A stretch of 64,000 nt of DNA, taken from NCBI GenBank assembly GCA_024614665.1, contig GCA_024614665.1_4861.1; one strand, written 5' to 3'. The notes beneath the pieces were generated by a model, which was not told the DNA's origin, did no database searches, and saw only the letters and a list, made by a program, of their open reading frames with translations. Shown one piece after another: positions 954-50,451 of this stretch (positions are counted from its first letter, which is position 1; every line of letters starts with the position of its first letter). This DNA is from a phage. The position numbers were made by a program, and so were the translations under genes.

Positions 954-3137
954 TCACTTTGGTAATTGGTCTAGCCGGAAGCCATCCATGTCACGGTCGG
1001 CCACGCGCTCGGCAAGCGTCCACTCCTCAAATGACGTCCGCACACGGACAACGTCGATAGGCGGCTGTACCATATCGACCACAACATCCTGCTCGACCTT
1101 CACACGGATACCAGGGTAGACATTCATCCGCAACTTAATACGTTGCGGGATTGCCATTTCCTTTATCACGGGAGCGACAGGGATGGGCTTATCCGTCGTC
1201 ATGAATGAACTACGGCTCACACGCTGCACGTCTGTCAGAGGGTAAATGATATTTGTTGTATCGGCAGCCTCTGTGAGAATATCATCCAGAATCGGGATGA
1301 CTGGGTCGGTGACATCGTAGGTGTCAGAACCCATACGTGCGGCAAAATGGACAGTATACGACGAGAGTTTCGTCATTAACCGCACCATCGCGCGTTGTAT
1401 TTCAGCTTGTGAGACAGACGCACGTGTTTCCAGATTAGTGGCCACGTTTAGAGCGTCGGTGGCGATGTCCTGCCAGGTTTCCGCGGAGACTAACTCGTAA
1501 TCAAAACCAAACGTTTTAAAGAACTCGTCGTAATCGCGGTAAGGTAGGTCAAGATCGCACTTATAGTCACGGTAATGGTAGGTAAACAGCATTGTGCCGG
1601 CAGCACGGTCGGCTAGCTTGTGTCGATTATACGAGTAACGGTAACGACGACGCTTCTGCACCATGATTTCGCTAATTTCATCGTACAACTCATCTGCAGA
1701 CATCAAATTACCGATAACTTCATGATGCGTGTCCGTGTAATAGTTAATCAACGCATTAAAACGGCCGGGCCATGAACTTGGCAGATGCTGTTCCATCTCA
1801 TCAAAACCAACCCAGCGTTTGATTAGCACACCAAACACATTCCACACCGGGATTTTATCCAGTGCTACGCCAGAATAACCTTTGAAGCTCGCATACAAGA
1901 ACAGTGCCAGCAGCTCTTTTGAAGTGAGCTTTAGCGTGTCCCCGTTCGTTGGGTTAAGAATTTCGTGGTAAATGTTGTACTGTCCACGTGCCACGATATG
2001 CATCCACTCGTTGAACAAGCCATGCATAAATTCCCAACGTTCGATGGCCTCTGGGTCAATCGCCGTTACCTCAACTAACTTCGTTGGCAGGTTCGGATAC
2101 TGCGTCAAGCTCAAACGCCGATCGAGGTCTTCCTGATAGTCAGGTTCGTGCACTGGGTTATTGTACGCCAGATTGATTTCTTTCTGGATGATGTCAGTTG
2201 TGCTAACAATGTCCAGGTCACGGCCCGAGTCACGTTCAGTATAGTTAAGCGACGACTGGTAGCCGATCGGGAGTGGTGTCAGGTCATCGTCGCTGCCCGT
2301 CGTCGGGTCGTGAATCTGCTGGGCGACCTTATATCCAACAGCAGGCATACCCCAACCTGTCAGCAGGGTGTCAATCATCCAAGTAAAGATTTCTTCCTTA
2401 CCAGAGTTACGTTCCCAGTAACGGATATTGCGATACAGTGTGAATTTCTGCTTGAGGGTCAGGTACGGCATGAACTCGTGCAGTTCTTGGTGCGAAGCCA
2501 AGAACTCGGTCACGTAGTAGGAGTGCGTTTCGGTCGTAAACTGTAATCGTTTGCGGATGTACATGATAAGCCCCGGCCACACCGGGTACTGCTGCATGTA
2601 AAAGGCCAGTACGAAACAGTCGTTGTGAACTTTCCAGCCATCGGCCATGAAACGTACATGTGCCGCACGAATAAAGTTCTCAATATGTGTAATTAACGAC
2701 GTCTCCTGCGGTTCAACTAAAGCAGGATCGTAATACAAAATTGAGCAGTCATCGACACGTATCGCGTATGCAACATCAATCGGATTGAAAGTGCCGCGAA
2801 TGTATACTGCGTAGTCCGGATACTCGGCGATTAAGTCATCGATATACTCCGGGTTAGAACGATATACGTTTGAGGTCTTTTTATGACGGGAGAGGTTCTG
2901 CGTCGTTAACTCTATCTGCTCTTGCGTGTCGAGTGACGTAATGTATATCGGCTTGTCGATTGCATGTCGTTTACCTGCTAAGTGTAGGTAATACCGCCAC
3001 GTCTCACGGTTCTCGGAAACGAAACCGCCGTTTTTGGTTATTGCCAGGTTCATCTGTTGGGCGATGCTCTCTGATTTGACAATCAGGGATTTCGCTAACT
3101 GGATAGCCTGGTCACGAAAAATGTTAAATCTCTGCAT
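954..3137 (-). CDS. hypothetical protein (about 727 aa)
   Basis: Long ORF; track start at 3149 is a non-ATG codon, first ATG is 3137; head-to-head with plus gene starting 3149. Confidence 0.6.
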   Translation of the reverse strand: MQRFNIFRDQAIQLAKSLIVKSESIAQQMNLAITKNGGFVSENRETWRYYLHLAGKRHAIDKPIYITSLDTQEQIELTTQNLSRHKKTSNVYRSNPEYIDDLIAEYPDYAVYIRGTFNPIDVAYAIRVDDCSILYYDPALVEPQETSLITHIENFIRAAHVRFMADGWKVHNDCFVLAFYMQQYPVWPGLIMYIRKRLQFTTETHSYYVTEFLASHQELHEFMPYLTLKQKFTLYRNIRYWERNSGKEEIFTWMIDTLLTGWGMPAVGYKVAQQIHDPTTGSDDDLTPLPIGYQSSLNYTERDSGRDLDIVSTTDIIQKEINLAYNNPVHEPDYQEDLDRRLSLTQYPNLPTKLVEVTAIDPEAIERWEFMHGLFNEWMHIVARGQYNIYHEILNPTNGDTLKLTSKELLALFLYASFKGYSGVALDKIPVWNVFGVLIKRWVGFDEMEQHLPSSWPGRFNALINYYTDTHHEVIGNLMSADELYDEISEIMVQKRRRYRYSYNRHKLADRAAGTMLFTYHYRDYKCDLDLPYRDYDEFFKTFGFDYELVSAETWQDIATDALNVATNLETRASVSQAEIQRAMVRLMTKLSSYTVHFAARMGSDTYDVTDPVIPILDDILTEAADTTNIIYPLTDVQRVSRSSFMTTDKPIPVAPVIKEMAIPQRIKLRMNVYPGIRVKVEQDVVVDMVQPPIDVVRVRTSFEEWTLAERVADRDMDGFRLDQLPK

Positions 3138-3148
3138 CGGAGACCCCA

Positions 3149-5890
3149 ATGGAAGATATTAGTAAATTAACGGGCGACCCCGCGGTAGCTGCCATACTGC
3201 GTAAGTCCACGAGCCCGTCGGCTCAGCAGCAACGCGGTAAGCGTGAAGATGGCGGTGTTACACCAACCCGTACAGAACTCACAGGTATCGCGAGTAGCCG
3301 CATTCGCACCGTTAAAAATGCCGAACGTATCTTTGATGCGCTCCCTGAGTTAGAGGTCATTGTTACCATCGCGACCTCCTCGCTCCTGTCCACAAAAGAT
3401 TTGATTAACACCACGCTGATTTACGACAACGTGGCGGATATCCCGATCGACCTGCGTCAACAGTTGTTAGAACCCGTGCGTGATTTCCATGACCACACGC
3501 GCCAGTTGCCCAACAAACTGTATCAGTGGATTTACGATGCACTGAAATCCAAAGGTGCGAGCCCAGTGTTGCTGATTTCAGATACCGGATTCGATGAACT
3601 CTTCGGCTTAAAGCCGTCTGTTGCAACCGAATCACTGCGCCGGAGCCAATCTGACTTCTTTGAACGTCAGTTGGGTATTCTAGGCAAGATTGGCGGTGAG
3701 AACAAACCGAAGGTTGGTGTAGAAAGTATTCTGGGCCGTGCACGTGGCGCTGACAAGCCCACCAAGCCACAAACCATTAAACTTAACTTTGCATCAGCCC
3801 CTAACAGTCCGTTTAAAGCAGACGGTATGTTAGCTTCCCTGGATATCGTTATCACCGACAACCCGCGTATTACCCTGTTACCAGAGGCTTATCGCCGTGT
3901 GGCACAGGAGAATGCTCGTACCGGCCTGTTCGGGCAGTTAGAGCAGTACGCATATGAACAACCTTCTACACCGACAGGTGCGTCAGCGTATAACGCTGAC
4001 CAGTTCACCGACAGCGAACAAGAGAAGGCAAAACTCGGTTTAATCAACATTGGCGACCTCAACGAAGCGTACCAGAAAACGCCTGAGCAAAAGCTTTACG
4101 GCGAAGTACCGAAGATGAGTTTCTCCGATGCTAACAAAATCGAATACACGGAACGATTACTGCCAGCAGAGTCCACACTCCCGCTCGTTATCGGCGACGA
4201 TGTTCGTAACCCCATAGGTTATCTGGCCATCGTTGACGAAATGGGTAACTTCATTAACTCGCGCTCCACACTTTACGGTGATGCGAACTTCATGAACTAC
4301 CTGAACAACGACGGTATGGTGGATTCAACAATCAACCGTGCAAATCTGGGGATGGGCAACACAACCCGAATCACACCAGACATTGCTAACCGCTTAACAG
4401 CGCGTTATGGTGAGATTGCTGAAGATCAGCTGACAAAAGCGTTGGGTGAGGCGTTGGGGGGTGCTGAGATTAGCATGACGGTAACCGAAACGTTCAGCCG
4501 TATCATGTTAGCGCGCCATCTGGCAAAACGTCATACGCAGGTTATTTATATTCCTGCGGAAAACCTTTGCTACTTCGCCACGGACTTTGATGAAGATGGC
4601 ATCGGTGTATCTATTACCGAACGTTCGTTCGTTATCTCTACTGTCCGTATGGCACTGTTGTTCGCTACCATGAACTCTGCGGTGTTAAACTCTGCGCGTC
4701 ACATGCAGTACGACATTGAGTTGGCACCAGATGACATGAACGGTCAGAAAACAATTGACCAGTTGAAAACAGACATCATGAACTCCTATAACCGTCGTCA
4801 ACCGATGTGGGGGGACATGAACGACACCTGGGCAATGACGACAAACGCAGGTATTGCGTTCAACGTTATCGGTAACGACTACTACGGTAGTACCAAAGTG
4901 TCTGTGTCGGATACCACGCCGGATTATAAATATCCGGATAAGGATTTCGACGAAGGTCTGTTACGCCGTACTTGCCATATCGCTGGTGTTGACCCTGACC
5001 TGGTAATGACCCCGGAGAACATCGAATTCGCTTCACAGATTTTCTCTAAATCGTTGCTGGTCACGCAACAAGTTGTTAAGAAGCAAGAGATTCTCTCTAA
5101 GCCACTGACGCGTTATGTAGTCAATGGGATGTTGGCCTCCCCGTCGTTACAATCAGCGATGATTAAAATCATTGCAGAGTATATCAATGCTAACGGCAAT
5201 GGGATGACTACTGACCAGGTTACGAAAAAGGTCTCTGAGTATCTGGCTGCCTTCATCAACGGTATGAAAGTAACCTTACCACCACCAGACACCTCAGCAG
5301 CAGCTTCGCAGATGGAGTTGTTCGATAAACGTACTGAGTTCTTTGAGAAGCTGGCTGATCTGGTTGTAACGGATGACATTGCTGCGCAACTTCAGCAGGA
5401 AGGCATCTCGATGGACCCGAACGATCTGAAGACGATGATCAAATCCTTCTATACGCGCAACTGGCTGCGTAAACAAGGCATTGAAACCGACTTCTTCGAT
5501 CTGGTTTACGACGATAAATCTCGTCAAGACAACATTACCATGATGACTGATGAAGCGATGGCTGCTTCGAAGACGCTGATTCAACTGGCGAAACGCTTTA
5601 CAGGTCGTCTGGAAACGTTGGCGAAAAATGCTGACCTTGACCCTAACGAATCTGCTGGCGGATTCAGTGGTGGTTTTGATGCGGGCGGTGACACCGGTGG
5701 CGGTGAAGGAGATCTCGGTGGTGGGGGTGACGATGATTTAGACCTCGATCTCGATACGGATGACGGAACCGACGGGGATAGTACAGGGGAAACGACTGAG
5801 TCGACCGAAACCACGGATACAACCACCGAGGGAACGGAAGGCACAGAAGACGAAGGGACTACCGACGACAACCCAGACAACGTCCTCTAA
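3149..5890 (+). CDS. hypothetical protein (913 aa) with acidic Gly/Asp/Thr-rich C-terminal tail
   Basis: ATG with GGAGA about 9 nt upstream; ORF ends immediately before a canonical intrinsic terminator. Confidence 0.65.
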   Translation: MEDISKLTGDPAVAAILRKSTSPSAQQQRGKREDGGVTPTRTELTGIASSRIRTVKNAERIFDALPELEVIVTIATSSLLSTKDLINTTLIYDNVADIPIDLRQQLLEPVRDFHDHTRQLPNKLYQWIYDALKSKGASPVLLISDTGFDELFGLKPSVATESLRRSQSDFFERQLGILGKIGGENKPKVGVESILGRARGADKPTKPQTIKLNFASAPNSPFKADGMLASLDIVITDNPRITLLPEAYRRVAQENARTGLFGQLEQYAYEQPSTPTGASAYNADQFTDSEQEKAKLGLINIGDLNEAYQKTPEQKLYGEVPKMSFSDANKIEYTERLLPAESTLPLVIGDDVRNPIGYLAIVDEMGNFINSRSTLYGDANFMNYLNNDGMVDSTINRANLGMGNTTRITPDIANRLTARYGEIAEDQLTKALGEALGGAEISMTVTETFSRIMLARHLAKRHTQVIYIPAENLCYFATDFDEDGIGVSITERSFVISTVRMALLFATMNSAVLNSARHMQYDIELAPDDMNGQKTIDQLKTDIMNSYNRRQPMWGDMNDTWAMTTNAGIAFNVIGNDYYGSTKVSVSDTTPDYKYPDKDFDEGLLRRTCHIAGVDPDLVMTPENIEFASQIFSKSLLVTQQVVKKQEILSKPLTRYVVNGMLASPSLQSAMIKIIAEYINANGNGMTTDQVTKKVSEYLAAFINGMKVTLPPPDTSAAASQMELFDKRTEFFEKLADLVVTDDIAAQLQQEGISMDPNDLKTMIKSFYTRNWLRKQGIETDFFDLVYDDKSRQDNITMMTDEAMAASKTLIQLAKRFTGRLETLAKNADLDPNESAGGFSGGFDAGGDTGGGEGDLGGGGDDDLDLDLDTDDGTDGDSTGETTESTETTDTTTEGTEGTEDEGTTDDNPDNVL

Positions 5891-5955
5891 ACAAAAAAAA
5901 GAAAAAGAAATAAGGTTTACCTCTCCCTTCGGGGAGAGGTACCTTTTCTTTTTTT
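5891..5955. terminator. bidirectional intrinsic terminator
   Basis: A-tract (5891-5910), stem acctctccc/gggagaggt with TTCG loop (about 5918-5941), T-tract (5943-5955); between convergent genes. Confidence 0.7.
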
Positions 5956-6256
5956 AATCTTCTGTAGCAGCTTTAGGTTTATTAACCAGTTCGTCGAGCA
6001 TGATACCAATCGCCAGAGGGTCGTTCTGGAAAGGTTCTAGCTTTTCCAATACCTTTGTATCCTTTGCTGCTTTTAACGCCTTCAGGAGGCCTTTACGGGC
6101 GTTATAGAAGATTTGCCAGCGACGCCCATGACTGATCGCGGTTTTGGCTTTGTGGAAGTCGGCTAAGAAAGCTTCAGTCGCTTTGTTTTCAGGTAACTCA
6201 AAGCGAAAACGCACACTACGCTCAAAATCCATGTTGACAACAATGAACTTTACCAT
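5954..6256 (-). CDS. hypothetical protein (100 aa)
   Basis: ORF track; ATG 6256 with GAGGT RBS. Confidence 0.5.
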   Translation of the reverse strand: MVKFIVVNMDFERSVRFRFELPENKATEAFLADFHKAKTAISHGRRWQIFYNARKGLLKALKAAKDTKVLEKLEPFQNDPLAIGIMLDELVNKPKAATED

Positions 6257-6268
6257 GCTCGAACCTCA

Positions 6269-6287
6269 TTATAGAGCTACTCTATAA
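6269..6287. repeat. perfect inverted repeat TTATAGAG-cta-CTCTATAA
   Basis: 8-bp arms, 3-bp spacer, in the 34-bp gap upstream of gene 5954..6256; half-site recurs near 19081-19132. Confidence 0.5.
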
Positions 6288-6290
6288 TAA

Positions 6291-6557
6291 TTACGCCAGT
6301 GTAATGTGGTACTTATCAATGTCAGGGAATCGCTCTTTGATCATCCCGCAGAACATATCTAGCACCGGATCAGTTTTTGCGGCCTTCTCCATCTCAGGAA
6401 AAACGCTACGCAGTGGCACGCCAGGGTTCTGCCCTGCCGTTTTCTTAAGCTCTTCTTTATACTTTGCCAACAGAGATTTAACCCCAGCTGTCTTCGGGAA
6501 GCCACACCCTGCGACCCCATCGTTTTCAAAATAGATTACTGCTTCAACACTAGACAT
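6291..6557 (-). CDS. hypothetical protein (88 aa)
   Basis: ATG at 6557 preceded by AAGGAG; track ORF extends to 6575. Confidence 0.5.
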   Translation of the reverse strand: MSSVEAVIYFENDGVAGCGFPKTAGVKSLLAKYKEELKKTAGQNPGVPLRSVFPEMEKAAKTDPVLDMFCGMIKERFPDIDKYHITLA

Positions 6558-6571
6558 TTTAATACTCCTTT

Positions 6572-6615
6572 TCATGATAAAATAAAAAATAATAATAGGA
6601 GACCCGAAGGTCTCC
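6572..6615 (-). terminator. intrinsic terminator (minus strand)
   Basis: Stem ggagacc/ggtctcc with CGAA loop (UUCG in minus RNA), then A-tract on plus strand = U-tract in transcript; follows stop of gene 6623..8299. Confidence 0.6.
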
Positions 6616-6622
6616 GTATTAC

Positions 6623-8299
6623 TTAGTACAACACTGGTGCAGTTTTCTCACCATTGCTCAGAAGCAAGTAAGTGTGCTGCGGCAGCTGCATCAATACAAT
6701 TGCATGTGGCACGTTTTCCTGTACTGCTTCGTAGATAGACACAACCGGGTCTGCGGTATTGCCCAGAGACGCTACCGTAACTACGTCGTGTTTATCAACA
6801 GAATGGTACATGCCTGGAATCACGATGGTGAACTGGCTCTGAATCAGATTAACCACCTTGCCAGAATCGCTCAGCTTGATAGTCAGTTTGCGCAGAGAGT
6901 TTGCTACCATCAGGAACAGGTCACGGAACCAGTCTTCATATTCACTTACGCCGTTGTCGCCAGCGGTTGCTGTGAACAGATCTTTTACGAAGAAATCAAT
7001 ATCGCTGATTTTCCGTTCGAAATCGATAGCTTTGAACTTCGGCACATCTTTACCACGCTTAGTGCCCAGCGACAGCGCGTTGTGTACCAGGAAAGTGATA
7101 TTCGCCAGGTACGCATTAGCAAAGCGAGAAATTTCACTGATAACCACTTCTGCTTCGCTGCTGTTCGCAATCGCATATTCGTGCAGTTCTTTCGTGTTCT
7201 TACGCAGTTCATCGATCGTGCGTTTCACCTTAGCCATGATAGTTTCAACATCTTCTACCAACGCCAAGTTGTCGAGATCGGATTTCAGTGCGTCGTGCTT
7301 AGCAACGAATTGTTTCATGCGTTCGCACATGTCAGTGTTAACACCGACCAGATACGCGCGATAGCTATCCCGTGCACGCACAATCAGGTCAGCCCCGTCG
7401 TAGAAAACAACCTCTTCATTACCGTTAAAGATATCTTGCAACGGTGTAGCCCAATCACGCGTTTCCGCGTAAACAGATTGCTTAATGCGACTGTTAGCTT
7501 CCTTCGCTGGAATCGACATTTTAAGCTCGGGGGTTTTCAGCTCGTGAAGTGCGTAGTCTTCCATCAAATCAATCTCCTGCAGAATGTTGTTAATTGGGCC
7601 ATTGGTAGTGTCCTTCTCGGTTTCTTCTGTTGCGCCGAGTGGGGAAAGCACTGGGTTATTAACTGTAGCGTTAGACACCGGCATTGGTTGTACAGGCACC
7701 TGTGCTGGTTCAGGCTGGGGCTGTTGTGCTGTGGCTGGGACTACTTGCGCCGGTTGTGGGTTCAGGATAGGATCACTAACCAGGTTAAGACCTGCACCGC
7801 CAGCAATCACGGTTAGTGCCGCATCTGTGTTACCAATCTTAACACCGCCGGATGGCGCAGAAGACATGGTCAGGCCATCAGTAACACGGACACCGCCAGA
7901 ACTGTTACCGCCCAGTAACCCGCCTGCGTTGCTACCACCACCTAAACCACCACTGCCACCCAAACCGCCGGACTGCTGAGAACGAATTTCGGCAAGAATC
8001 TTACCGACTTGTTCCCAAGCATTAACCAGTTTGGTGTGACGATCGTCGTTATACGCGTCGCCCGCGTTATGCACCTGCTGATAGGCAGCTGCTTTATACG
8101 CGTCGACCGCATATGCGATAACCTGTGCTTCACTACCCCCTTTGGATGCTGCCCATGCCGCAACATACGTCGCAATCTTTAACGCCTGATCTGGCGGAAT
8201 GCTACGACTACGCATCACGTTATTCAACTGCGACAGTACCGCGTCCTGATCGAGGTGTTTAACGATGACGTTTTTGATTTGTTCAACAGTAATGCTCAT
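6623..8299 (-). CDS. hypothetical protein (558 aa) with internal Gly-rich and Pro/Gln-rich linker
   Basis: ORF track; ATG with GGAG RBS; low-complexity stretch SGGLGGSGGLGGGSNAGG. Confidence 0.6.
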   Translation of the reverse strand: MSITVEQIKNVIVKHLDQDAVLSQLNNVMRSRSIPPDQALKIATYVAAWAASKGGSEAQVIAYAVDAYKAAAYQQVHNAGDAYNDDRHTKLVNAWEQVGKILAEIRSQQSGGLGGSGGLGGGSNAGGLLGGNSSGGVRVTDGLTMSSAPSGGVKIGNTDAALTVIAGGAGLNLVSDPILNPQPAQVVPATAQQPQPEPAQVPVQPMPVSNATVNNPVLSPLGATEETEKDTTNGPINNILQEIDLMEDYALHELKTPELKMSIPAKEANSRIKQSVYAETRDWATPLQDIFNGNEEVVFYDGADLIVRARDSYRAYLVGVNTDMCERMKQFVAKHDALKSDLDNLALVEDVETIMAKVKRTIDELRKNTKELHEYAIANSSEAEVVISEISRFANAYLANITFLVHNALSLGTKRGKDVPKFKAIDFERKISDIDFFVKDLFTATAGDNGVSEYEDWFRDLFLMVANSLRKLTIKLSDSGKVVNLIQSQFTIVIPGMYHSVDKHDVVTVASLGNTADPVVSIYEAVQENVPHAIVLMQLPQHTYLLLSNGEKTAPVLY

Positions 8300-11988: not shown

Positions 11989-12033
11989 ATTTTTAGAAAA
12001 AAAGAAAAAGCTTACTCCCCGAAGGGAGTAAGC
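11989..12033 (-). terminator. intrinsic terminator (minus strand)
   Basis: Stem cttactccc/gggagtaag, then plus-strand A-tract = U-tract after hairpin in minus transcript; follows stop of gene 12065..14365. Confidence 0.6.
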
Positions 12034-12064
12034 TAATCTTAGGCAACGTAATCCTTACGGATTA

Positions 12065-14365
12065 TTAGCCGCCAGCGCCTTCACCGCCAGTACCTGGCTG
12101 GGTAGCACCGCCGCCAACATCACCAGCATTACCACCGTCAGTACCGCCGGTGCCGTTGGAAGTAGTAGTGACGTTGAACGCCAGTTTCTCTTCCACGAAC
12201 TTGGTGATACCTTTAATCCAGATCAGACCAGTGATCGGGCAGTGGCAGATGTGCGCGTTACGAGGCTGTACTGCCAGCTCTTTGCTGGTAGCGCCGTTAC
12301 GCTGGATGTTGATGTTGGTTACCATGATCGGAGACCAGAAGTGGTTACCCCAGTTCAGAACACAGTAAGAACCATCATCAGCGGTTGGAACTTTCAGAAC
12401 CCACTGCAGGCGGCGAGTCCAGCTGCCGTCAGCTTCGTTCTTCACACGCCAGCGGTCATCGTTGGTGGTGATAACTTCGTACTCGTAGCGATCGCCCAGC
12501 AGACGCTGGTCGCCCTGAACCAGCAGCAGCATTGCAGCAGTCGGTTCGTCAGTTGCGATAACAACTTTCGGCAGTGCGTTCGGGTCCGCAGTCAGCAGGC
12601 GCAGAGCCGGCATGAAGCGAGAGTCCTGGATAGCACGAGTTACCTGGTCACCGATACGCTGTACCAGACCCTGACGGGCGTTGATGAGCGCATCTTTGGT
12701 ATCCAGAGACTGGATCACTTTGTCCACTTCGTAGTCGCTTTCGCTGTACCACGGAGCAACCCAGTGACGGCCCAGGCCGCGGATAGCAGGTTTGTCCCAC
12801 GGAGTGATCATGGACGCAGCTGCGTTCTTAACCGCTTCGGTGTAAGACAGAGTCTGAGTGATAGCCAGCATTTCGTTACGGATGTTAACCGCAGAAACGA
12901 GGTCGTCCAGACGTTCGGTGTCGTCGTATTCAACGCCAACCGGAGATTTGGTCATGATCGGAGAACCGTACTGCAGTTTGTAGTTCTCTTGTTCCCAAAT
13001 CGGGTCGAGCAGAAGGCCCTGGGTTCTCCGGTTCTCGTTGGTACGAGTACCGTCGAAGCGCCAGCCCAGCAGCTCCAGTTTCAGGTTGTCGATGATGACT
13101 TTGCCGGTGCCGCTTTCGATATCAACAGCAGTACCAGTTGCATCGTACAGACCTTCGATTTCCAGAGACGGTGCAGTCACGTCAACACGACCAGAGAACT
13201 GACCGTTGGTGAACAGAGACATGCTGATGTTCATGGAATAACGAATGGTGTAATCGTTCTGTGCCAGAGCGGCCAGTGCCGGGATTTCAGCACCTTTCCA
13301 GTCCAGAGACTTGGCGTTCAGGGAGAACACAGTGCGACGGAACTGCAGGACCAGCTCACGACCATCACCTTCAGGAGGACGCTGGAAGGTAGCGAACTGC
13401 ATGTCGCGTACGTTCAGTTTGATCAGCGCACCATCTTTCGCTTCTTCGCTCGGCTTACGCACAGACAGCAGCAGGCTACCCAGCGCTGCACCCGGTGCGA
13501 TTTCGTCGGTTTCATCGTAACCTTCCTGCACGATACCCGGATGGGCAGACAGCTGGAACAGGTTCAGACGACGCTCAGAGAAGCTCAGGTAGTTGGTCGG
13601 ATACGCCGGCACACGACCCAGCTGAACGTTTTCGTTTTCGATGATGTCTTCGGATACGAAGAACTTCGCGTTCTCACCGGTTTCCATCACGTAAGGTACG
13701 ATACGGATAGCATCGTCCTGCAGGACTTTGTGGTTAGACAGCGCGTTATGCAGCGGCTGACGGTTGTCTTCAACCACGTCTTTGGTCAGCAGGGCGTTCA
13801 GGATACCACGAGTTACAGTAGTAACTTTGGTACGAACGGTGATGCCGACGTCGTTGGTGTCCACAGTGATGGTCGGGAACAGGGTTTCTGCAAACTTGGA
13901 TTGAGTTTCCAGAGCACGCACGTTCAGCGTCCAGGTCAGACCCAGGTTTTTGTCCAGGTCTTTGTTGGTGTAGTATTCGGTTGCGACCAGCGGAGTTTTA
14001 CCGTAGTCAGCAGCCAGGGATGCTGCACCAGAAATAGCGATCGGCATATAGCTGGCGTATTCCGGCTTCGCGCTCTCAGCAGCAACACGGGTCATGAAGT
14101 CATCTTCGTGACCGGCAGCAGCCAGAATCATCGCAGAAGCAACCTGAGCAGCGTGGCTCATGGTTTTGCCAGGGTTTACAGCTTCGTAGTGCTGCTGAGC
14201 AGTGTCACGCAGGTTGGTGAAGCCGGCAGCATTTTTACGTACAGATTCGCCAACGGCTACGGTTTGCCATACGTCATTAGCGGAAGAGCCTGCCTTGGCA
14301 GCAGCGACCAGAGCATTGCCCTGCTGAACCAGCTGGTCCAGACTAGCGATACGGGTATCTTTCAT
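12065..14365 (-). CDS. candidate major virion structural protein (possibly major capsid protein), 766 aa
   Basis: Strongly biased codon usage typical of a very highly expressed gene, flanked by terminator; size in the range I recall for phiKZ-type major capsid proteins; no motif-level proof. Confidence 0.35.
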   Translation of the reverse strand: MKDTRIASLDQLVQQGNALVAAAKAGSSANDVWQTVAVGESVRKNAAGFTNLRDTAQQHYEAVNPGKTMSHAAQVASAMILAAAGHEDDFMTRVAAESAKPEYASYMPIAISGAASLAADYGKTPLVATEYYTNKDLDKNLGLTWTLNVRALETQSKFAETLFPTITVDTNDVGITVRTKVTTVTRGILNALLTKDVVEDNRQPLHNALSNHKVLQDDAIRIVPYVMETGENAKFFVSEDIIENENVQLGRVPAYPTNYLSFSERRLNLFQLSAHPGIVQEGYDETDEIAPGAALGSLLLSVRKPSEEAKDGALIKLNVRDMQFATFQRPPEGDGRELVLQFRRTVFSLNAKSLDWKGAEIPALAALAQNDYTIRYSMNISMSLFTNGQFSGRVDVTAPSLEIEGLYDATGTAVDIESGTGKVIIDNLKLELLGWRFDGTRTNENRRTQGLLLDPIWEQENYKLQYGSPIMTKSPVGVEYDDTERLDDLVSAVNIRNEMLAITQTLSYTEAVKNAAASMITPWDKPAIRGLGRHWVAPWYSESDYEVDKVIQSLDTKDALINARQGLVQRIGDQVTRAIQDSRFMPALRLLTADPNALPKVVIATDEPTAAMLLLVQGDQRLLGDRYEYEVITTNDDRWRVKNEADGSWTRRLQWVLKVPTADDGSYCVLNWGNHFWSPIMVTNINIQRNGATSKELAVQPRNAHICHCPITGLIWIKGITKFVEEKLAFNVTTTSNGTGGTDGGNAGDVGGGATQPGTGGEGAGG

Positions 14366-27632: not shown

Positions 27633-28892
27633 TTACTTAGACTTTTCGTACGCACCGATACCGGCGCTGATGTAGCCGTTAACGCCGGCGATCAGGTTTT
27701 TCTGGCCAGTTGCAACGCAACGTTCGGTCCAGGAGATGTACTGGTTCGCAACGGTGATTGCACGACGTGCAACACGGACGTTGGAAGTCAGTTCAGCGTT
27801 GTCGTCGATCTTCACGCCGTCGATACGTTTCAGCAGCGCCTCAATAGCCCGCTCGTACGATTCTTGAGCCTGGTTATTTTTGTGGTACGCTTTCACGTTC
27901 TCTTCGACTGCTTTACCCAGCTGGTTGAAGAACGCAACCAGAGAAGACAGCGTCTGAGCAGACGGAGTAGAAACAGATTTTTCTACGCTGCCTTCAGCAT
28001 CGATAACGGTGAAGGAAGCTTCCAGGTCATCCCCGTTCACTTTCACGTCAGCTTTACCGATCTGGTTACCCAGCAGTTGAACTTCGCCCGCTTTGCCTGC
28101 AGTGGCTTTGTTAACCGCTGCTGCGAAGCCGCTGTTCAGTTTCCCGCCTTCAACTGCGCTGACCATGCTGGTTGCAGCTTTGACCACTGCATCCTGCTCG
28201 CCGTAGATGCTGCCGATAGTAGACAGAACACCTTTCAGGACGTTGATGTCGTTACCGACGAACTTACCACCGGTGGTCAGGTTCTTAATGAACCCACCGC
28301 TAACGGTGTCTTTCTTCTGCTTGCCCAGGCCACGCAGAGCCGCGTCATATTTCTTAGCGCGCGCCTGAATGGATTTACCCTGGTTGCTGAACTTGAGCCA
28401 GCGATCTTTGATTTTACGGCCTTGTTCTTTCAGCCAGTCGAAGATACGCTGCAGGAACGCTTTGATGTCGTCCCACAGTGATTCACGAGCAACCTGACGG
28501 CGTTTACGTGCGCCGTAAGATTCCTGCGCAACGCTTACGCGGTGATCGAATGCCCAACGTTTACGGATAGATTCCTGCGCAACGTCCAGCTGCTCAGCAG
28601 CTTCGTCAGGCATATCTTCTTCCACTTCCATTGGCTCTTCGCCATCTTCGCCTTCGCCGTCAGCAGCGGCTTCAGCAGCATCAACTGCATCCAGCTGTGC
28701 ATCAGTTTCGTCACCGTCTTCTGCCAGCACGTCTGCTTCTGCGTCCAGCTGGTCGATCGGTTTGGTGTCATGCTCGATGTCGGCCAGGGTACCTTCCACG
28801 GACTCAGCCGGCAGCTCGATGCCATCTGGAACGACAGTGCCTGCGCCTTCGACAGATTCACGAGCGAGTTTACTTTTTACAAAGTTAGCCAT
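27633..28892 (-). CDS. hypothetical protein with acidic N-terminal region, tandem paralogue A (419 aa)
   Basis: Shares N-terminus MANFVKSKLARESVE, internal VAQESIRKRWA and LGKQKK..SGGFI, and C-terminus NGYI(S/G)AGIGAYEKSK with neighbouring gene. Confidence 0.6.
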   Translation of the reverse strand: MANFVKSKLARESVEGAGTVVPDGIELPAESVEGTLADIEHDTKPIDQLDAEADVLAEDGDETDAQLDAVDAAEAAADGEGEDGEEPMEVEEDMPDEAAEQLDVAQESIRKRWAFDHRVSVAQESYGARKRRQVARESLWDDIKAFLQRIFDWLKEQGRKIKDRWLKFSNQGKSIQARAKKYDAALRGLGKQKKDTVSGGFIKNLTTGGKFVGNDINVLKGVLSTIGSIYGEQDAVVKAATSMVSAVEGGKLNSGFAAAVNKATAGKAGEVQLLGNQIGKADVKVNGDDLEASFTVIDAEGSVEKSVSTPSAQTLSSLVAFFNQLGKAVEENVKAYHKNNQAQESYERAIEALLKRIDGVKIDDNAELTSNVRVARRAITVANQYISWTERCVATGQKNLIAGVNGYISAGIGAYEKSK

Positions 28893-28969
28893 CTTTTTCT
28901 ATCCTCTAGGCGGTACGCCGTGTACCGCCATTAATGATTTGTCAACTGACGTTCAGTACGTAAAGCGGA

Positions 28970-30247
28970 TTAAGCTTTAGACTTTTCGTACGCGCCAATA
29001 CCAGCGCCGATGTAGCCGTTCAGGCCGCTGATAACAGTGTTACCAACGTGAGCCACAGCACGGTTCAGAGTCTGGTAGTTACGCACAGCCTGGTCAGCTG
29101 CAGTGCGTGCATTACGCAGCGCTTCCCACTCGCCTTCGTCGTTGGATTTTTTCAGAGCGGCAGCAGCTTTGGCAGCAGCCTCTTCCAGTTTCTCAACGTC
29201 AGCATCGTAGCTGCGGAAGTCTTGCAGGACTTTCTCGAAGCCTTTACCGATAACGTCCAGGGCAGACGCAGCAGATGCCAGTGCAGAAATAGCCGGAGTA
29301 GCGATTTCTTTCGTTTCAGAAACGTCACCCGTCGACAGGAAGGCCACTGCGGTGAATTCCTGACCGCCTGCCAGAGTTTTGGTGCCGGTCTGTACATAGG
29401 CGTTGCCTGGCAGTGCCAGAACTTTCTGACCGCCTTCGCCGTCTTCGAATTGCGGCAGTGCGCGCAGTTTCTTCGCAGCGGTACCAAACAGGGCAACGTC
29501 AACAGCGCCTTTAGCAGCGGTTGCGGTACCGTCTGAAGTTTTGGTGATCGCTACAGCAGAGTCAGCCGCCTGAGAGGACAGCTTGTTGATAGCATCTTTC
29601 GCTTTACCGCCGGTCAGCTCTTTCGCGATAGCGATAGAGTTGGCCACATCGAATTCACCTTCGATAGACAGTTTGCTAATAAAGCCACCAGAAATGTTTT
29701 CTTTCTTCTGTTTGCCGAGCTTACGCAGCATCTCCTGGTAAGCTTTCGCACGTTTCTGCGCGGACTTACCAACGTTGATGTACTTCAGTTTCAGCTCTTT
29801 CGCTTTCGCGATAACTGCTTTACACAGTTCAACGAAGCGTTCGAACAGATCTTTCAGGGTTTCTTTCCAGCCTTCCTGAGCTGCTTTGGTCATGCCACGG
29901 CCACGGCGATAAGATTCGCGTGCCAGTTTGGTACGATCGATAGCCCAACGTTTACGGATAGATTCCTGCGCCACTTCGGTGTGAGCGATGGCTTCTTCAG
30001 GCATCTCTTCACCGTTTTCGATTTTTTCGTCAGCAGCGTCGATAGCAGCTTCGGTACGCTCGGTATCAGCAGCCAGAGTTTCCTGGTCACCATCGAGCTG
30101 TTCCAGCTGACCGTCGATAGACGCAACTTCTGCCAGCTGAACGTCGATGTTCTCTTCTGCCGGTTCAACGTTGCTCAGACCGTCGATTACGTCGCCGGTA
30201 GCTTCAACGGACTCGCGGGCGAGTTTACTTTTTACAAAGTTTGCCAT
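28970..30247 (-). CDS. hypothetical protein with acidic N-terminal region, tandem paralogue B (425 aa)
   Basis: Paralogue of 27633..28892; first about 14 codons and last about 20 codons nearly identical at nucleotide level. Confidence 0.6.
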   Translation of the reverse strand: MANFVKSKLARESVEATGDVIDGLSNVEPAEENIDVQLAEVASIDGQLEQLDGDQETLAADTERTEAAIDAADEKIENGEEMPEEAIAHTEVAQESIRKRWAIDRTKLARESYRRGRGMTKAAQEGWKETLKDLFERFVELCKAVIAKAKELKLKYINVGKSAQKRAKAYQEMLRKLGKQKKENISGGFISKLSIEGEFDVANSIAIAKELTGGKAKDAINKLSSQAADSAVAITKTSDGTATAAKGAVDVALFGTAAKKLRALPQFEDGEGGQKVLALPGNAYVQTGTKTLAGGQEFTAVAFLSTGDVSETKEIATPAISALASAASALDVIGKGFEKVLQDFRSYDADVEKLEEAAAKAAAALKKSNDEGEWEALRNARTAADQAVRNYQTLNRAVAHVGNTVISGLNGYIGAGIGAYEKSKA

Positions 30248-37191: not shown

Positions 37192-37237
37192 AAAGCACTA
37201 CCCTCTCCCGAAGGAGAGGGTAGCCTTTTATTTTATT
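37181..37237. terminator. bidirectional intrinsic terminator
   Basis: A-tract, stem ctaccctctcc/ggagagggtag with CGAA loop, T-tract ccttttattttatt; between convergent genes. Confidence 0.7.
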
Positions 37238-38966
37238 CGCCGTCAAGCATATTTTTGCGATTATTGCCTTTCACCAACGGGTTACGTTTGGCCAGGTTCA
37301 GTATCGTCTGCAGTGTAGCGGCAGCACCGCAACAACGCCGCACCAAAGACAGGTTACGTCGCAAGCCGACGAAGAGGTCTTCATCCCCGTCTGGGGAGAA
37401 TAACACCATCGAGAGTTCACGACCGTCGGTACGCAGGCCAGAAGGCTGATTAAGCTCATTCATGATGACTTCGCTAATCAGGTTAACGTATTCAACGTTA
37501 TCCTTGGTTGCTTTCTGGAACTGCTCCAACACTTTAATCGTGTTGTTAACCGCCTTATCCAGTGCACTGTAACGATTCAGGTTAGTCGCAGCGGTGTCGT
37601 TGGTAAAGCCTTGTTTACCTAACGTTACCACTACAGCCAGCAACTCACGTTCGTCACCAACCGATAACGTGCCTGCCTGACGCATTTGCTCTAAGCACTC
37701 GCGTCCCAAGAACGCAGATGCTTGTGCGTTGACCAATACCTTACCAGGCACGAAGTCCACACCATCGTCATGACCCACCAAACCACGAACTTTGTTTTCT
37801 GGGATAACGACCAAAGGTGCAGTAGCGTATTCGAATCCTTTGCGGGAAACGTCGCTGATGATGAAGTTCATCGTGGTGTTCAGCTGCGCTAACGCCTGAC
37901 CGAAAATAAGCGCGGTGTCGTGTGCTGCTTTGTTAACTTGCTTACCGTTGTGCGTGGTGGTTGAACCTTGCTGATTCTTAAAACCTTCGGCGACGCTTGG
38001 GTCAATCATCGCTTTAAAGGCACTCTGGAGCGAGCCAAAGTAACCGATAAGTTCGCTGGCAACATTCGACATCTGATGGAAGTTCAACAGGTTCGGAATA
38101 CGCACACCGGCTTCGCGAGCAGACTTCGGTAACGCCTGCCAGGCTTTCTTACCCACTTCAATCGGGTAGATACCGTACGTCACGTTGTGTTGTAACAGGG
38201 TGTCTAACAGATCGTGAATAACCTGCTGGCTTGACTGACGTTTCTTAGTGTAGCCTTTGAACAACTCAGTGAACGGCGAACGACCCAGCGCGCTGCTCAA
38301 GTCGTTCAGATACTCTTCCGCGTTCATGTTCGTAAACACTTCGTCGGCCATCGCGATAGCCAAGTTCAGGTTTTCCAGATCACGACCTTTCAGACCCTTA
38401 GAGGCTTCGATGTATGCATCTTTCACTGCGCTGATTTTCAACTGACCGATGATAGTGTTTTCGGTCTGGGAGAAACTCTCTGCTTTTTCGCCGACTTTCT
38501 CAGCGTAACCTTCGCCGTCGAATTCGCCATTACCAGCAAACCCGTTACCGTTGCTGATAATCCAACCGATGATTTTGATAATCGCGGTCATGATCAACAC
38601 AACCAATCCCACTTTACCTGCATTTGCCCAGGATTCGAGCGCAACAATAGTCTCTTTCTGGTGCGTGCGGGTATAGTTCGAAGTCAGGATTTTGCGAACG
38701 GCTTCGGGAATTGTACCTGGGCGAGAAGATTCAACAGCGACAGCGACATCTTTCGACAGACCTGCGCGACGCACTTCGTCAAGAATCGCGTCAATTTGCA
38801 GAATCAGTCGAGAGCCGTAGATTAAGTCAGCTTCGTTGCGTTGCATGTACAGATTGAGCTGGTTGACAGAATCAATACGCTCGGTCATACGTGAACGCAG
38901 GACTTCACCGATCTCCCCCAAACGCCATTTGGGGTGGGTGGCGTTACCTGTCATTTCCATGCTCAT
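37233..38966 (-). CDS. hypothetical protein (577 aa) with one predicted transmembrane segment
   Basis: ORF track; hydrophobic stretch VGLVVLIMTAIIKIIGWII. Confidence 0.55.
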   Translation of the reverse strand: MSMEMTGNATHPKWRLGEIGEVLRSRMTERIDSVNQLNLYMQRNEADLIYGSRLILQIDAILDEVRRAGLSKDVAVAVESSRPGTIPEAVRKILTSNYTRTHQKETIVALESWANAGKVGLVVLIMTAIIKIIGWIISNGNGFAGNGEFDGEGYAEKVGEKAESFSQTENTIIGQLKISAVKDAYIEASKGLKGRDLENLNLAIAMADEVFTNMNAEEYLNDLSSALGRSPFTELFKGYTKKRQSSQQVIHDLLDTLLQHNVTYGIYPIEVGKKAWQALPKSAREAGVRIPNLLNFHQMSNVASELIGYFGSLQSAFKAMIDPSVAEGFKNQQGSTTTHNGKQVNKAAHDTALIFGQALAQLNTTMNFIISDVSRKGFEYATAPLVVIPENKVRGLVGHDDGVDFVPGKVLVNAQASAFLGRECLEQMRQAGTLSVGDERELLAVVVTLGKQGFTNDTAATNLNRYSALDKAVNNTIKVLEQFQKATKDNVEYVNLISEVIMNELNQPSGLRTDGRELSMVLFSPDGDEDLFVGLRRNLSLVRRCCGAAATLQTILNLAKRNPLVKGNNRKNMLDGE

Positions 38967-39406
38967 GAAATTTGCCCTTTCAGTTCTGCCATGTAGAAAC
39001 CAACCACTTCCATAAAGCGGCTAATCCACAAACCGACGGTTTCCCAGATATCTTCACCGAGCGCCTGGTTGAAGATTTCACGAACAGAGAAACTTTCCAG
39101 GGCTTTAGCGCCGCCATACACGTTGCAGTAACGATTGCAGTACAGACCCACGGTCATGTCCTCAATCACGCCTAAATCAACACAGTACAGCTCGTTAACG
39201 TCGGAGACGATATTACGCATTACCGGACGTAAAAACGTCCCAGCGGCCTCTGCAGCGCCATATTGGCCATTATCAGCCAGTACCGCGTTATACGCCAGTG
39301 AGAAAGCAACCAGACCAGTCAAAGCACGCTGGGCGTGTACGCCTTTCCCTTCGTTGGTACGTTTGAAATCCAGTACCAGGTTATTTAAAGAAACTTTGTG
39401 CGTCAT
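38963..39406 (-). CDS. hypothetical protein (147 aa)
   Basis: ORF track; 4-nt overlap with downstream gene. Confidence 0.45.
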   Translation of the reverse strand: MTHKVSLNNLVLDFKRTNEGKGVHAQRALTGLVAFSLAYNAVLADNGQYGAAEAAGTFLRPVMRNIVSDVNELYCVDLGVIEDMTVGLYCNRYCNVYGGAKALESFSVREIFNQALGEDIWETVGLWISRFMEVVGFYMAELKGQIS

Positions 39407-39421
39407 GTTAAGTACCCTTAC

Positions 39422-40774
39422 TTAGGAAGAAGTCGCCTGACTAAGCTTCGCAGAAGCCACACGCAGGTCATTAGAAAGATAGCGCTCCATCGTACGCTGA
39501 TAATCCACCCCAGCACGCTCACGGCGACCGCCAGGGGTCAGCGTTTTCATGATGAAGCTAAAGACGTTGTCTTTGTCTTTCACGGTTTTCAGTAGTTCGT
39601 CGATAGACGCAATGCCCTGCAGAATACGTTTACGATGTTCGTTCGCTTCTTTCGTGGTGCTGCCTTTTAAGGTGTTCAGCTCCTCCACTAAGTTACGGCG
39701 CATCGTCTCAAAACGTTCCTGCGGCGGATCGTAGATGGTGTTGCGTGGGTCGTTCACAATCAGGCCGAACGCGACTGAGATAGTCGTGAAGAACAGACCA
39801 ACTGGATTAGTCGAAGCCACAATCAGCAGCGAAACGTTAAGCATCTCCAGCATCAGATGTACACCGTAGTTCATGTACGACGCGTTCCGGCAGAGATAGA
39901 ATTGGGACGTTTCGATTTTGTACAAGGCTGACGCCAGGTACGGGGCTGCACCAAAGCGAGCTGCGAAGTCATCTGCAGCACGTTCCCAGGTACGGTTAGC
40001 GAACCCTTCCGAACCGGTAACAAACGGACGCTCAAGCAGAATGTCTGTCACCAGATGCATGTAGATGTTCTCTTTAGACATCTCTTTGCAGATAGTTTCC
40101 GGCTGATTCACTTTGGTGTTCAGCATACGTTCAACGTCTTTTACGACTTTTAAACGCACTGTCGGGTCTTCTGTTTGCATCATGCGGTTCGCTGCAGCAT
40201 CCGCAATCAGGTTCGTTACCACCGTACGCATCAAGGTACGGAAATAGTAATAGACGTGACCGACTTCATGTAGAATAATCGCCGCGACTTCTAAATCCGT
40301 TAACTCGATACCTGTCAGTAGTTTCGGGGTCAGCCAAAGTGGGGACGGCACCTTGCTGAGTTCGCCTGAAAGCTTCGCATTTTTATCGTCGAACTCGCCG
40401 TTCAGCTCGTTCTCTTTTAAGAACTTACTGTAGACATCCAGGTCGGTGTTACCCTGCACCATCTTGCGTTGCAGGTCGGCGATGATTGGGTTGTTCGCGT
40501 CGAGCTTCGGTGGCTCCACACCCGCAAACACAACGTCCGCCACACCTAAGTCGGACCCGTTACGAGGCAGGACTGTAATACCGTTGTTGTCAAAGACCCA
40601 GGCAGCAATACCAGAACTCTGATAACCCGCTGGCGAGAAGTCGCCCGCATCACGGAACTTACGTACCACTTCCGCCAAAGAGGCGAGTTTCTTTTTATCT
40701 TGGAATCCGATGGACTCCGAGGCCACGGCTTTCGCGTCGGCCAACGAGGTTATGTGCTTTTGCCAGTGTCCCAT
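39422..40774 (-). CDS. putative zinc metallopeptidase (HExxH, M48-like)
   Basis: HEVGH motif (AIILHEVGHVYYYF) followed downstream by TWERAADDFAARFG resembling the M48-family E-x-x-A-D third-ligand motif; hydrophobic segment after it. Confidence 0.45.
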   Translation of the reverse strand: MGHWQKHITSLADAKAVASESIGFQDKKKLASLAEVVRKFRDAGDFSPAGYQSSGIAAWVFDNNGITVLPRNGSDLGVADVVFAGVEPPKLDANNPIIADLQRKMVQGNTDLDVYSKFLKENELNGEFDDKNAKLSGELSKVPSPLWLTPKLLTGIELTDLEVAAIILHEVGHVYYYFRTLMRTVVTNLIADAAANRMMQTEDPTVRLKVVKDVERMLNTKVNQPETICKEMSKENIYMHLVTDILLERPFVTGSEGFANRTWERAADDFAARFGAAPYLASALYKIETSQFYLCRNASYMNYGVHLMLEMLNVSLLIVASTNPVGLFFTTISVAFGLIVNDPRNTIYDPPQERFETMRRNLVEELNTLKGSTTKEANEHRKRILQGIASIDELLKTVKDKDNVFSFIMKTLTPGGRRERAGVDYQRTMERYLSNDLRVASAKLSQATSS

Positions 40775-48857: not shown

Positions 48858-50451
48858 GTGATTTCCTTACAACGTAGGGGGATGTCGCGATACGGAACGA
48901 CAATACGACATCCTTGAGTGATTTCTGGCGGGCATTCAGGTAATTGCAATGCTTCGGTACGTTATACGCATGGAATAACCACACCGTTGGGTCTATTTCA
49001 CCCCATTCGTTGTGGAGAATCTTACGTGGACGACCGGCCATCTGTTCGTTCAGTTGCTGGTCTTCTACCGGGGTTGAAATGTACATGTGTACCAACCCAG
49101 GTTTATCGACCGCAGTCCCCGCTTTCCCCGGTGTGGAGATAGAGAAGTCTGCTTGGATAAAGTCGTCATACGAATCGCCTGCATTATATTTCGCCACCAT
49201 CAACGGATGGAATACAGGGTCACGCGATAACTTATCTTTCACATACTCGGTAAAGAACTCACACATCGCTACCGTAGCAAAGAGTATCAAACATTTTTGG
49301 CCAGGTTGATACCGTTTAAGGAACGATTTCTCAACCACATCCCAGATCATGTTTGCGTATTCTAAATGCATGTTCTCTTTAATCAGCTTCCCTTCGAAGA
49401 GTTTGTGGTTATACGGCGTCATCTTCGATGCCCACCACGCAAACTTCTTATCATCCAGTCGATAGTACAACGCCTTCACGTCAACTACCGGAACGATAGG
49501 GATACTGATACGGCACTCCATTGGGAAACGCTCCATGTACCGTTCGGCGATAAACGCTTTACTGGAGCCAGGAGTTAACGTTGCCGACATTTCAATGCTT
49601 GGCGGCGGGTTAAGCATTACACCTGCCATGTAGACCAGGTGGAAATGCTCATGTACCTCATCCATTCCCAACAACCCGATACCCAGCACGTCGTAAAACG
49701 TATCCAGGTCCACAGGGTTAGTTGCAGCTGTGTTGATATACTCCTTCAAGAAACGTTGTAGCGTCACCGTAGGGAGGATTATCAGCTTAATCCCACGTCT
49801 ATCCAACTCACCCGATTTACCCATCTCCAGGGCCTCGTAGATGGCCTGTACGCCGGTACAAACCAGCACGCCATCGCGAGATTCCCTTAAGCCAGTCGGG
49901 TCATCAGTGGTATCGAATATCCACTTCGGAACATAGGTCGGTCGAATGATAAGACCTGTCCTAACGCCCTTCTTAACAACCACTTTCATGAAGCTCTTAG
50001 ATTTCCCGGCTCCGGTCTGGATGGCAAATATCGTCTGTTGTCGACCTGGGGTCATCGCCGCTTCGCTAACTTCGTTCTGATAATAGAAACGTGAGTTAGG
50101 ATCGGTGACCTCGAGGTCGAATCCGTAATTATCAAACGTGCACTTATAAGGTGTTCCTCGTACAGGATGGTGCTCTGTTAGCTTGTACTGAAAAGCGTAT
50201 TCAATTGCTGCTCGTTGGAGGATATGTTTAATCTTCTCAGCGAACACTTTATGGAAAATGAACGTCCTTAAAGACGGAATGTGAGCGTAGTACGCGTCAC
50301 CGCGTTCCGTAGTTATTCGTCCATGTTGCTTGCCCATCTTTGGGGCGTGCATATTCTCTTCGGCCCACGCGAGTATGGCCCTTTCAGCCTGGCGGATAGG
50401 GACTTCAACCCGTACCCCCATACTCGTGTAAGTCATTTGAATTTCTACCAT
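48745..50451 (-). CDS. SF2 helicase (DExH-box)
   Basis: Walker A QTGAGKS, motif II LLGMDEVHE, motif III SAT, motif VI QMAGRPRK; track ORF extends to 50508 by reading through the upstream terminator, ATG at 50451. Confidence 0.6.
   Translation of the reverse strand: MVEIQMTYTSMGVRVEVPIRQAERAILAWAEENMHAPKMGKQHGRITTERGDAYYAHIPSLRTFIFHKVFAEKIKHILQRAAIEYAFQYKLTEHHPVRGTPYKCTFDNYGFDLEVTDPNSRFYYQNEVSEAAMTPGRQQTIFAIQTGAGKSKSFMKVVVKKGVRTGLIIRPTYVPKWIFDTTDDPTGLRESRDGVLVCTGVQAIYEALEMGKSGELDRRGIKLIILPTVTLQRFLKEYINTAATNPVDLDTFYDVLGIGLLGMDEVHEHFHLVYMAGVMLNPPPSIEMSATLTPGSSKAFIAERYMERFPMECRISIPIVPVVDVKALYYRLDDKKFAWWASKMTPYNHKLFEGKLIKENMHLEYANMIWDVVEKSFLKRYQPGQKCLILFATVAMCEFFTEYVKDKLSRDPVFHPLMVAKYNAGDSYDDFIQADFSISTPGKAGTAVDKPGLVHMYISTPVEDQQLNEQMAGRPRKILHNEWGEIDPTVWLFHAYNVPKHCNYLNARQKSLKDVVLSFRIATSPYVVRKSHAHSAASSRAAATLHRNDFSKFSRKHSKGVSRRRRRR

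Follow-up and report, generated by a model that had tools for sequence, protein, structure and literature searches.

A divergent M48-like putative metallopeptidase, gp45, in the head of a Salmonella jumbo phage of the SPN3US type

The gp45 gene and its family

According to our analysis, the open reading frame (ORF) at positions 39422 to 40774 (minus strand) of a 64,000-nucleotide (nt) stretch of phage DNA (GenBank assembly GCA_024614665.1, contig GCA_024614665.1_4861.1; this whole stretch is hereafter called the window) encodes gp45, a phage head protein whose catalytic core we conclude to be homologous to the M48 metallopeptidases. The ORF list gives it an ATG start and 450 amino acids (aa), the span including the stop codon. 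The segment 37000-43000 of the window matches Salmonella phage SPN3US, a 240-kb phiKZ-related Salmonella jumbo phage of the genus Seoulvirus, over its full length with 99.3% nt identity (megablast), and the protein encoded by the ORF is 100% identical to SPN3US gp45 (JN641803; tblastn). The name gp45 follows the original numbering, and the corresponding SPN3US record (YP_009153339.1) is labeled "putative virion structural protein 1". Two related GenBank records name the protein "beta-barrel assembly-enhancing protease", after the M48 enzyme BepA, and another calls it "peptidase"; the BepA name is an automated label and not an orthology call.

gp45 matches phrog_2767, a family of unknown function, at E = 1e-167 over aa 1-447 of 450, and by this full-length profile match it is a member of the Chimalliviridae head protein family gp45/phiKZ gp84 (PHROG 2767). 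Its ortholog in phiKZ is gp84 (PHIKZ084), found by tblastn at 2e-10 over aa 132-446 with ~23% identity, and tblastn identified further family members in phages of Pseudomonas, Vibrio, Ralstonia, Erwinia, Salmonella, and other hosts. A word-indexed search returned 35 relatives, and an exhaustive profile search returned 2421 cluster representatives at E <= 1e-3, 962 of which were found at E <= 1e-30. In the records LR535901-LR535908 (Salmonella phages SPFM1, 5, 6, 7, 10, and others), the gp45 gene is fragmented or frameshifted, with tblastn matches split into 3-6 pieces, and the encoded proteins show odd identity and coverage values while the genomes are otherwise near-identical; these broken genes most likely reflect sequencing or assembly errors.

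Zinc-site motifs and their conservation

Two motifs form the predicted zinc site. HEVGH (aa 169-173; 40256 to 40270, minus strand), which provides the two predicted zinc-ligand His residues and the catalytic Glu, is located on a long helix spanning aa 160-199 in the AlphaFold2 (AF2) model, while RTWERAAD (aa 261-268; 39971 to 39994, minus strand) represents an M48-type R-x-x-E-x-x-A-D helix with E264, 91 residues past H173, as the predicted third zinc ligand. gp45 therefore displays the HExxH motif on an active-site helix as well as the third-ligand Glu by which MEROPS M48 and PF01435 are recognized, the latter being expected in (S/N)R-x-x-E-x-x-A-D at ~75-95 residues after HExxH. A preliminary description of this DNA, made from the sequence alone, had pointed to the same ORF, to HEVGH followed by a Glu motif about 90 residues later, for which it quoted TWERAADDFAARFG (gp45 aa 262-275), and to an M48-type arrangement of zinc ligands; each of these observations is borne out by the present analysis.

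Conservation was assessed in an alignment of 142 gp45 representatives with a mean identity of ~25%. Only E20, H169, E170, G172, H173, E264, D268, and R354 are invariant. The HExxH motif always takes the form HE[LIVC]GH, and the spacing from its second His to the Glu varies between 87 and 97 residues, with a median of 91. The motif by itself occurs three times in the six-frame translation of the window (127,996 residues), i.e., no more often than by chance, and its occurrence in gp45 is deemed to stand above chance because both the motif residues and their spacing are conserved across relatives. The only other HExxH of the window that falls within an ORF is HEHFH (49639-49653, minus strand), inside the DEVH box of a 587-aa ORF which maps to a gene annotated "DNA helicase"; as a peptidase site we rejected it as a chance match.

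Relationship of gp45 to the M48 peptidases

When gp45 was searched against Pfam, Peptidase_M48 was the sole family near significance (E = 0.0034), with a match to aa 157-288 that covers both motifs, and the same family was detected at E < 0.01 in 43 of 100 gp45 relatives, with a best value of 2e-5. The profile built from the 142 sequences retrieved human ZMPSTE24 among the PDB sequences at E = 2.7e-5, in an alignment that takes in both motifs: the HExxH of the gp45 family stands opposite the ZMPSTE24 HELGH (H335-H339), and the family's RswEqlADqFA stands opposite RRFEFQADAFA in the SRRFEFQAD helix, which contains E415. As an internal control, the chain of the ZMPSTE24 E336A mutant scores lower with this profile than the wild type does. 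The family profile was needed for the PDB match because a single-sequence phmmer search of gp45 against the PDB gave exportin-1 noise only (E = 0.28); NCBIfam yielded weak HtpX fragments only.

The AF2 model of gp45 has a pLDDT of 91.6 and a pTM of 0.90. In a Foldseek search of this model against the PDB, 13 of the top 14 matches were ZMPSTE24 or Ste24, at non-significant E values (>= 0.086) and with a TM-score of ~0.17. The fold of the catalytic domain superposes on solved M48 structures, and this fold match implies that H169, H173, and E264 would converge on one metal site in the model.

We also considered that the motifs might be a chance resemblance and that gp45 might be an ordinary structural head protein without zincin ancestry, as the chance frequency of HExxH in the window and the exportin-1 noise of the single-sequence search could suggest. 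The invariance of the motif residues with their spacing of 87-97 residues, the profile match to ZMPSTE24, and the detection of Pfam M48 in 43 of 100 relatives effectively refute this explanation, to which we give hardly any credence.

On the other hand, the likeness of gp45 to the known M48 enzymes is confined to the catalytic core, while its N-terminal segment, its hydrophobic hairpin (see below), and its C-terminal helical bundle are unlike any solved M48 enzyme. ZMPSTE24 (with Ste24p in MEROPS M48A, CAAX prenyl protease 1) forms a barrel of seven transmembrane (TM) helices around a chamber, whereas gp45 combines the C-terminal bundle and an unrelated N-terminal region with a single hydrophobic hairpin at most, located behind the third-ligand helix, and reaches a global TM-score of only ~0.17; unlike these enzymes, it is also packaged in a virus capsid after removal of a propeptide. 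In contrast to the bacterial M48 proteins of the BepA, HtpX, and LoiP type, gp45 lacks the TPR domain of BepA, the N-terminal TM pair of HtpX, and a signal peptide. A true BepA ortholog was rejected on these grounds, i.e., the lack of a TPR domain and of a signal peptide and a score below the Pfam cutoff. The defensible label for gp45 is "divergent M48-like gluzincin".

A conserved hydrophobic hairpin

Directly after the third-ligand helix, aa 303-341 of gp45 (39752 to 39868, minus strand) are predicted to form a hydrophobic helical hairpin, with AF2 helices at 303-320 and 324-340, which we regard as a candidate membrane anchor or insertion element. Across the family, the best 18-residue Kyte-Doolittle window has a median of 2.18 and exceeds 1.6 in 97% of members, a hydrophobicity that is of transmembrane grade as judged from sequence. 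The hairpin is immediately followed by the conserved motif YDPPQERF (aa 348-355; 39710 to 39733, minus strand), whose family-wide form is YDxPxxR, with R354 invariant and Y348 and D349 conserved in at least 90% of sequences.

Head packaging and propeptide removal

gp45 was identified as a SPN3US head protein by mass spectrometry by the Thomas and Weintraub laboratories, with a mass of 50.3 kDa and a mature mass of 48.2 kDa (PMC5694885, PMC10052503), and its entry there reads "Head, unknown function" (PMC5694885, PMC10052503 Table 2). It was detected in every replicate of wild-type virions and of tailless heads (PMC10052503 Table 2, PMC5694885 Table 1). It is a mid-abundance head protein, with an SC/M value of 2.99 compared to 8.84 for the tail sheath, which is present in ~264 copies (PMC5694885, PMC10052503); from these spectral counts we estimate on the order of 100 copies of gp45 per virion. 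The N-terminal propeptide of 20 residues, MGHWQKHITSLADAKAVASE (40715 to 40774, minus strand), looks like a capsid-targeting sequence, and mass spectrometry showed that the prohead protease gp245 cleaves it off at ASE-20 (PMC10052503 Table 2, PMC5694885). Among the propeptides of SPN3US, this one alone is as short as a capsid-targeting sequence of T4 (PMC5694885, PMC10052503). The Discussion of PMC10052503 reads "20 and 24 residues in gp225 and gp45, respectively", while Table 2 and the Results of the same paper give 20 for gp45 and 24 for gp225; the two lengths were swapped in the Discussion. The packaging check advised in the preliminary description was thus already answered by these studies, which located gp45 in the head and showed its processing at ASE-20 (PMC5694885, PMC10052503).

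The cleavage junction has the form xxE|(A/S)I..Q across the gp45 family, and E20 is one of its invariant residues. Since both E20 and the junction are universal, packaging followed by trimming would be a property of the whole family, and the phiKZ counterparts of conserved cleaved SPN3US head proteins are likewise cleaved (PMC10052503).

The peptidase-like nature of this family has been noticed before. Iyer et al. in 2021 described AMR59696.1 as a "conserved, uncharacterized zincin-like metallopeptidase" found in the phiKZ-like jumbo phages (their group 1), in one sentence that also proposed a role in maturation (PMC7824862). According to our comparison, AMR59696.1 is SEGD1_gp047, which belongs to the same family and whose gene occupies the position of gp45 in a 99%-identical genome. 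The core idea of the preliminary description, that this protein is a peptidase, is therefore already in print (PMC7824862), while the targets that it named, namely, phage, envelope, or defense proteins, are speculation. The gp45 gene, its packaging in the capsid, and its peptidase-like nature are all published, and the hairpin, the gene module, and the fusions described here are modest additions. Beyond the work of Iyer et al., we tie the family specifically to M48, we document the hairpin, the invariant cleavage site, and the linkage to gp47, and we argue that a maturation role is unlikely.

A second capsid-maturation protease, cutting head or inner-body proteins in the prohead, as suggested for the family by Iyer et al., would agree with the location of gp45 in the head, with its intact zincin site, and with the extensive proteolysis of phiKZ-like heads (PMC7824862); when gp245 cuts off the short propeptide, this could be read as the activation of a zymogen. 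Nevertheless, we disfavor this role and deem it distinctly unlikely because the A/S-x-E signature of gp245 is present at every one of the 14 cleavage sites that were mapped, in nine head proteins of SPN3US (PMC10052503), and the conserved membrane-type hairpin would have no obvious use in a capsid. The preliminary description had likewise set gp45 apart from the standard head-maturation proteases, and rightly so: in SPN3US that enzyme is gp245 (PMC10052503), for which reason gp45 was also rejected as the prohead protease itself. Both gp45, as a putative enzyme predicted from sequence, and the prohead proteases (SPN3US gp245, phiKZ gp175, and T4 gp21) would be proteases located in the head. However, gp245 is a T4 gp21-like prohead serine peptidase of an unrelated class (PMC7824862) that cuts after A/S-x-E and whose gene lies in another part of the genome, and gp45 is its substrate and not its paralog (PMC10052503). 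We found no homology of gp45 to the prohead serine protease family of the T4 gp21/phiKZ gp175/SPN3US gp245 type.

Packaging would also put gp45 in place before any phage gene is expressed, as might be expected of an injected antidefense or host-takeover effector that cleaves a host protein in the cytoplasm, for instance an immune sensor or a regulator, in the manner of ArdC and of the zincin domains in the polyvalent proteins of phages and plasmids. The delivery of zincin peptidase domains together with the DNA is a recurrent theme (PMC5512222, PMC7824862). However, gp45 belongs to a conserved virion gene set spread over very different hosts (2421 cluster representatives), which fits poorly with a host-specific arms-race target, PHROG 2767 carries no annotation (no search of a defense library was made), and the hydrophobic hairpin points to a membrane and not to the cytosol; we therefore regard an effector role as improbable, even a little more so than a role in maturation.

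The gp45-gp46-gp47 operon and gp45 fusion proteins

gp45 is the first gene of an operon (37233-40774, minus strand) in which it is followed, after a gap of 15 nt, by gp46 (38963 to 39406, minus strand; 147 aa; phrog_8529), whose function is unknown, and then, with an overlap of 4 nt, by gp47 (37233 to 38966, minus strand; 577 aa; phrog_8131). Genetics and mass spectrometry have shown gp47 to be an ejection protein of the head that is essential and has a long propeptide, and a TM helix is predicted in it (PMC5694885). The gp47 ORF starts with MSMEMTGNATHPK, which matches the start revised by mass spectrometry, 4 codons upstream of the RefSeq coding sequence (573 aa). The operon is closed by a strong bidirectional hairpin terminator at 37197 to 37224, with a stem of 11-12 bp, 7 GC pairs, and T-runs on both strands, which is shared with a convergent plus-strand gene.

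The order of these genes appears, from sequence comparison, to be kept far outside the SPN3US clade. In a distant metagenomic contig, L006 (ENA k141_94023, positions 2846-7775), a gp45-like ORF comes first, then a homolog of gp46 (BLASTP 2e-8), and then an ORF whose N terminus weakly resembles the propeptide region of gp47 (E = 0.013); the gp45-like ORF runs uninterrupted over 1206 aa, with the gp45 module as its C-terminal third. In phiKZ, gp84 is homologous to gp45 and the gene order 84-85-86 is the same as 45-46-47 (PMC5694885). On the other hand, phiKZ gp86 and SPN3US gp47 have no detectable homology (PMC5694885), and phiKZ tolerates the deletion of orf85-86, whereas SPN3US requires gp47.

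In eight representatives (P0055, P0067, P0085, P0097, P0123, P0124, P0135, and P0159), the gp45 module is found inside proteins of 800-1450 aa, with N- or C-terminal extensions in which Pfam detected no family. All three junctions that were read (P0055, P0067, and P0124) retain a motif resembling a protease site, xxE|(A/G)I..Q, which suggests that the fused proteins may be polyproteins cut by the prohead protease. The genomic contig was looked at for one gp45 fusion. In P0067, whose ORF is uninterrupted on its contig, the 770-residue N-terminal extension weakly matches the gp47 family (phrog_8131 at 1.5e-6; BLASTP 2e-5 to gp47 aa 65-178), and the junction contains the cleavage-type site AME|AI. 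These fusions would tie the putative gp45 peptidase functionally to partners that resemble ejection proteins, through a similarity to gp47 that is weak. A G(L/M)(S/C)K..A.A.ES..PG-type stretch surrounds the AVE-79 cleavage site of gp47 (38700-38780, minus strand; gp47 aa 65-90), and the same type of stretch is present in the propeptide regions of two unrelated relatives, P0067 (aa 405-430) and L006 (6936-7034); it may represent a common capsid-targeting or cleavage element.

The linkage and the fusions with gp47-like segments, together with the high copy number of gp45, would also suit a mainly nonproteolytic protein, either a scaffold or chaperone, i.e., a BepA-like M48 body that holds or inserts hydrophobic ejection proteins of the gp47 type, or a part of a trans-envelope ejection conduit, with proteolysis being secondary or lost. 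In pseudo-enzymes, the catalytic base at least is usually lost, whereas the catalytic Glu and the three zinc ligands of gp45 are invariant in 142 sequences at ~25% identity. We think that this explanation is unlikely, but the high copy number keeps it a serious rival.

Outside the operon, the G+C content of the window peaks at 28001-30000 (0.534) and at 12001-14000 (0.544), compared to ~0.48-0.50 elsewhere. The segment 28001-30000, which has a strong AT skew of -0.159, coincides with gp53 and gp54, the genes for abundant internal head proteins.

Proposed role of gp45

We lean, with little more than even confidence, towards the interpretation of gp45 as a divergent M48-like zinc metallopeptidase which is built into the head, ejected with the DNA, anchored in a membrane, and active on a membrane-proximal substrate. 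gp45 is targeted to the prohead and trimmed by gp245. It would then be stored in the capsid and would probably leave it with the DNA and the other ejection proteins, a link that we draw because of the operon with the membrane-active ejection protein gp47, the gene order kept in L006, and the fusions to gp47-like segments. The hairpin may next anchor the protein in the host inner membrane or in the membrane of the early-infection (EPI) vesicle, where gp45 might cleave a membrane-proximal substrate, either a protein coejected by the phage, of which gp47 would be an example, or one of the host envelope. According to this scheme, gp45 would not serve as a second capsid-maturation protease. Transposon sequencing (TnSeq) in phiKZ recorded 0 insertions in orf84 after filtering (PMC12676376 Table S2, which we took to be supplement file 2 from the order of the files and the legends), and this is consistent with essentiality.

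Several points weigh against the interpretation of gp45 as a membrane-anchored, ejected M48-like peptidase. Regarding the enzyme, gp45 scores 17.7 bits with the Pfam M48 model and falls below the gathering threshold of 20.3 bits, so that by Pfam's own rule it is a divergent relative and not a member of PF01435; to this can be added the non-significant Foldseek values given above and an hhalign comparison of the gp45 family with single-sequence E. coli BepA, which reached a probability of 35% and aligned the HExxH segment alone. The literature that we searched yielded no biochemical data on zinc binding or proteolysis for gp45, phiKZ gp84, or any relative and none on the injection of gp45 or phiKZ gp84, and searches for the function of phiKZ gp84 (PHIKZ084) turned up nothing relevant. 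Regarding the membrane, the hairpin of SPN3US gp45 itself is borderline hydrophobic, with a best 19-residue Kyte-Doolittle mean of 1.64, and it could be a buried core element. Regarding ejection, some head proteins, e.g., phiKZ gp89 and gp162, stay in the capsid, and ~100 copies per virion are high for an enzyme and fit a stoichiometric or structural role. Finally, phiKZ orf85 to orf87 also received 0 insertions, and orf85-86 are deletable despite that (PMC12676376); the zero of orf84 may therefore be a polar artifact.

A more far-reaching version of the same scheme, which we put forward tentatively and consider rather doubtful, would see in the gp45 family a membrane-inserting metalloprotease of the Chimalliviridae that is preloaded into the capsid at ~100 copies and that, once ejected with partners of the gp46/gp47 type, cuts host inner-membrane or periplasmic proteins or activates coejected phage proteins, being needed to open the envelope and to build the EPI vesicle. 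Infection by nucleus-forming jumbo phages brings dozens of injected proteins into the cell together with the DNA, and a lipid vesicle forms within minutes. To our knowledge, almost none of these injected proteins has an assigned activity, except for the virion RNA polymerase. If the more far-reaching version were true, gp45 would be the first enzyme assigned to the opening of the envelope and the building of the EPI vesicle. Few of the conserved head proteins have a recognizable catalytic site, and gp45/gp84 is among them; the family may thus offer a tractable entry to the biochemistry of early infection.

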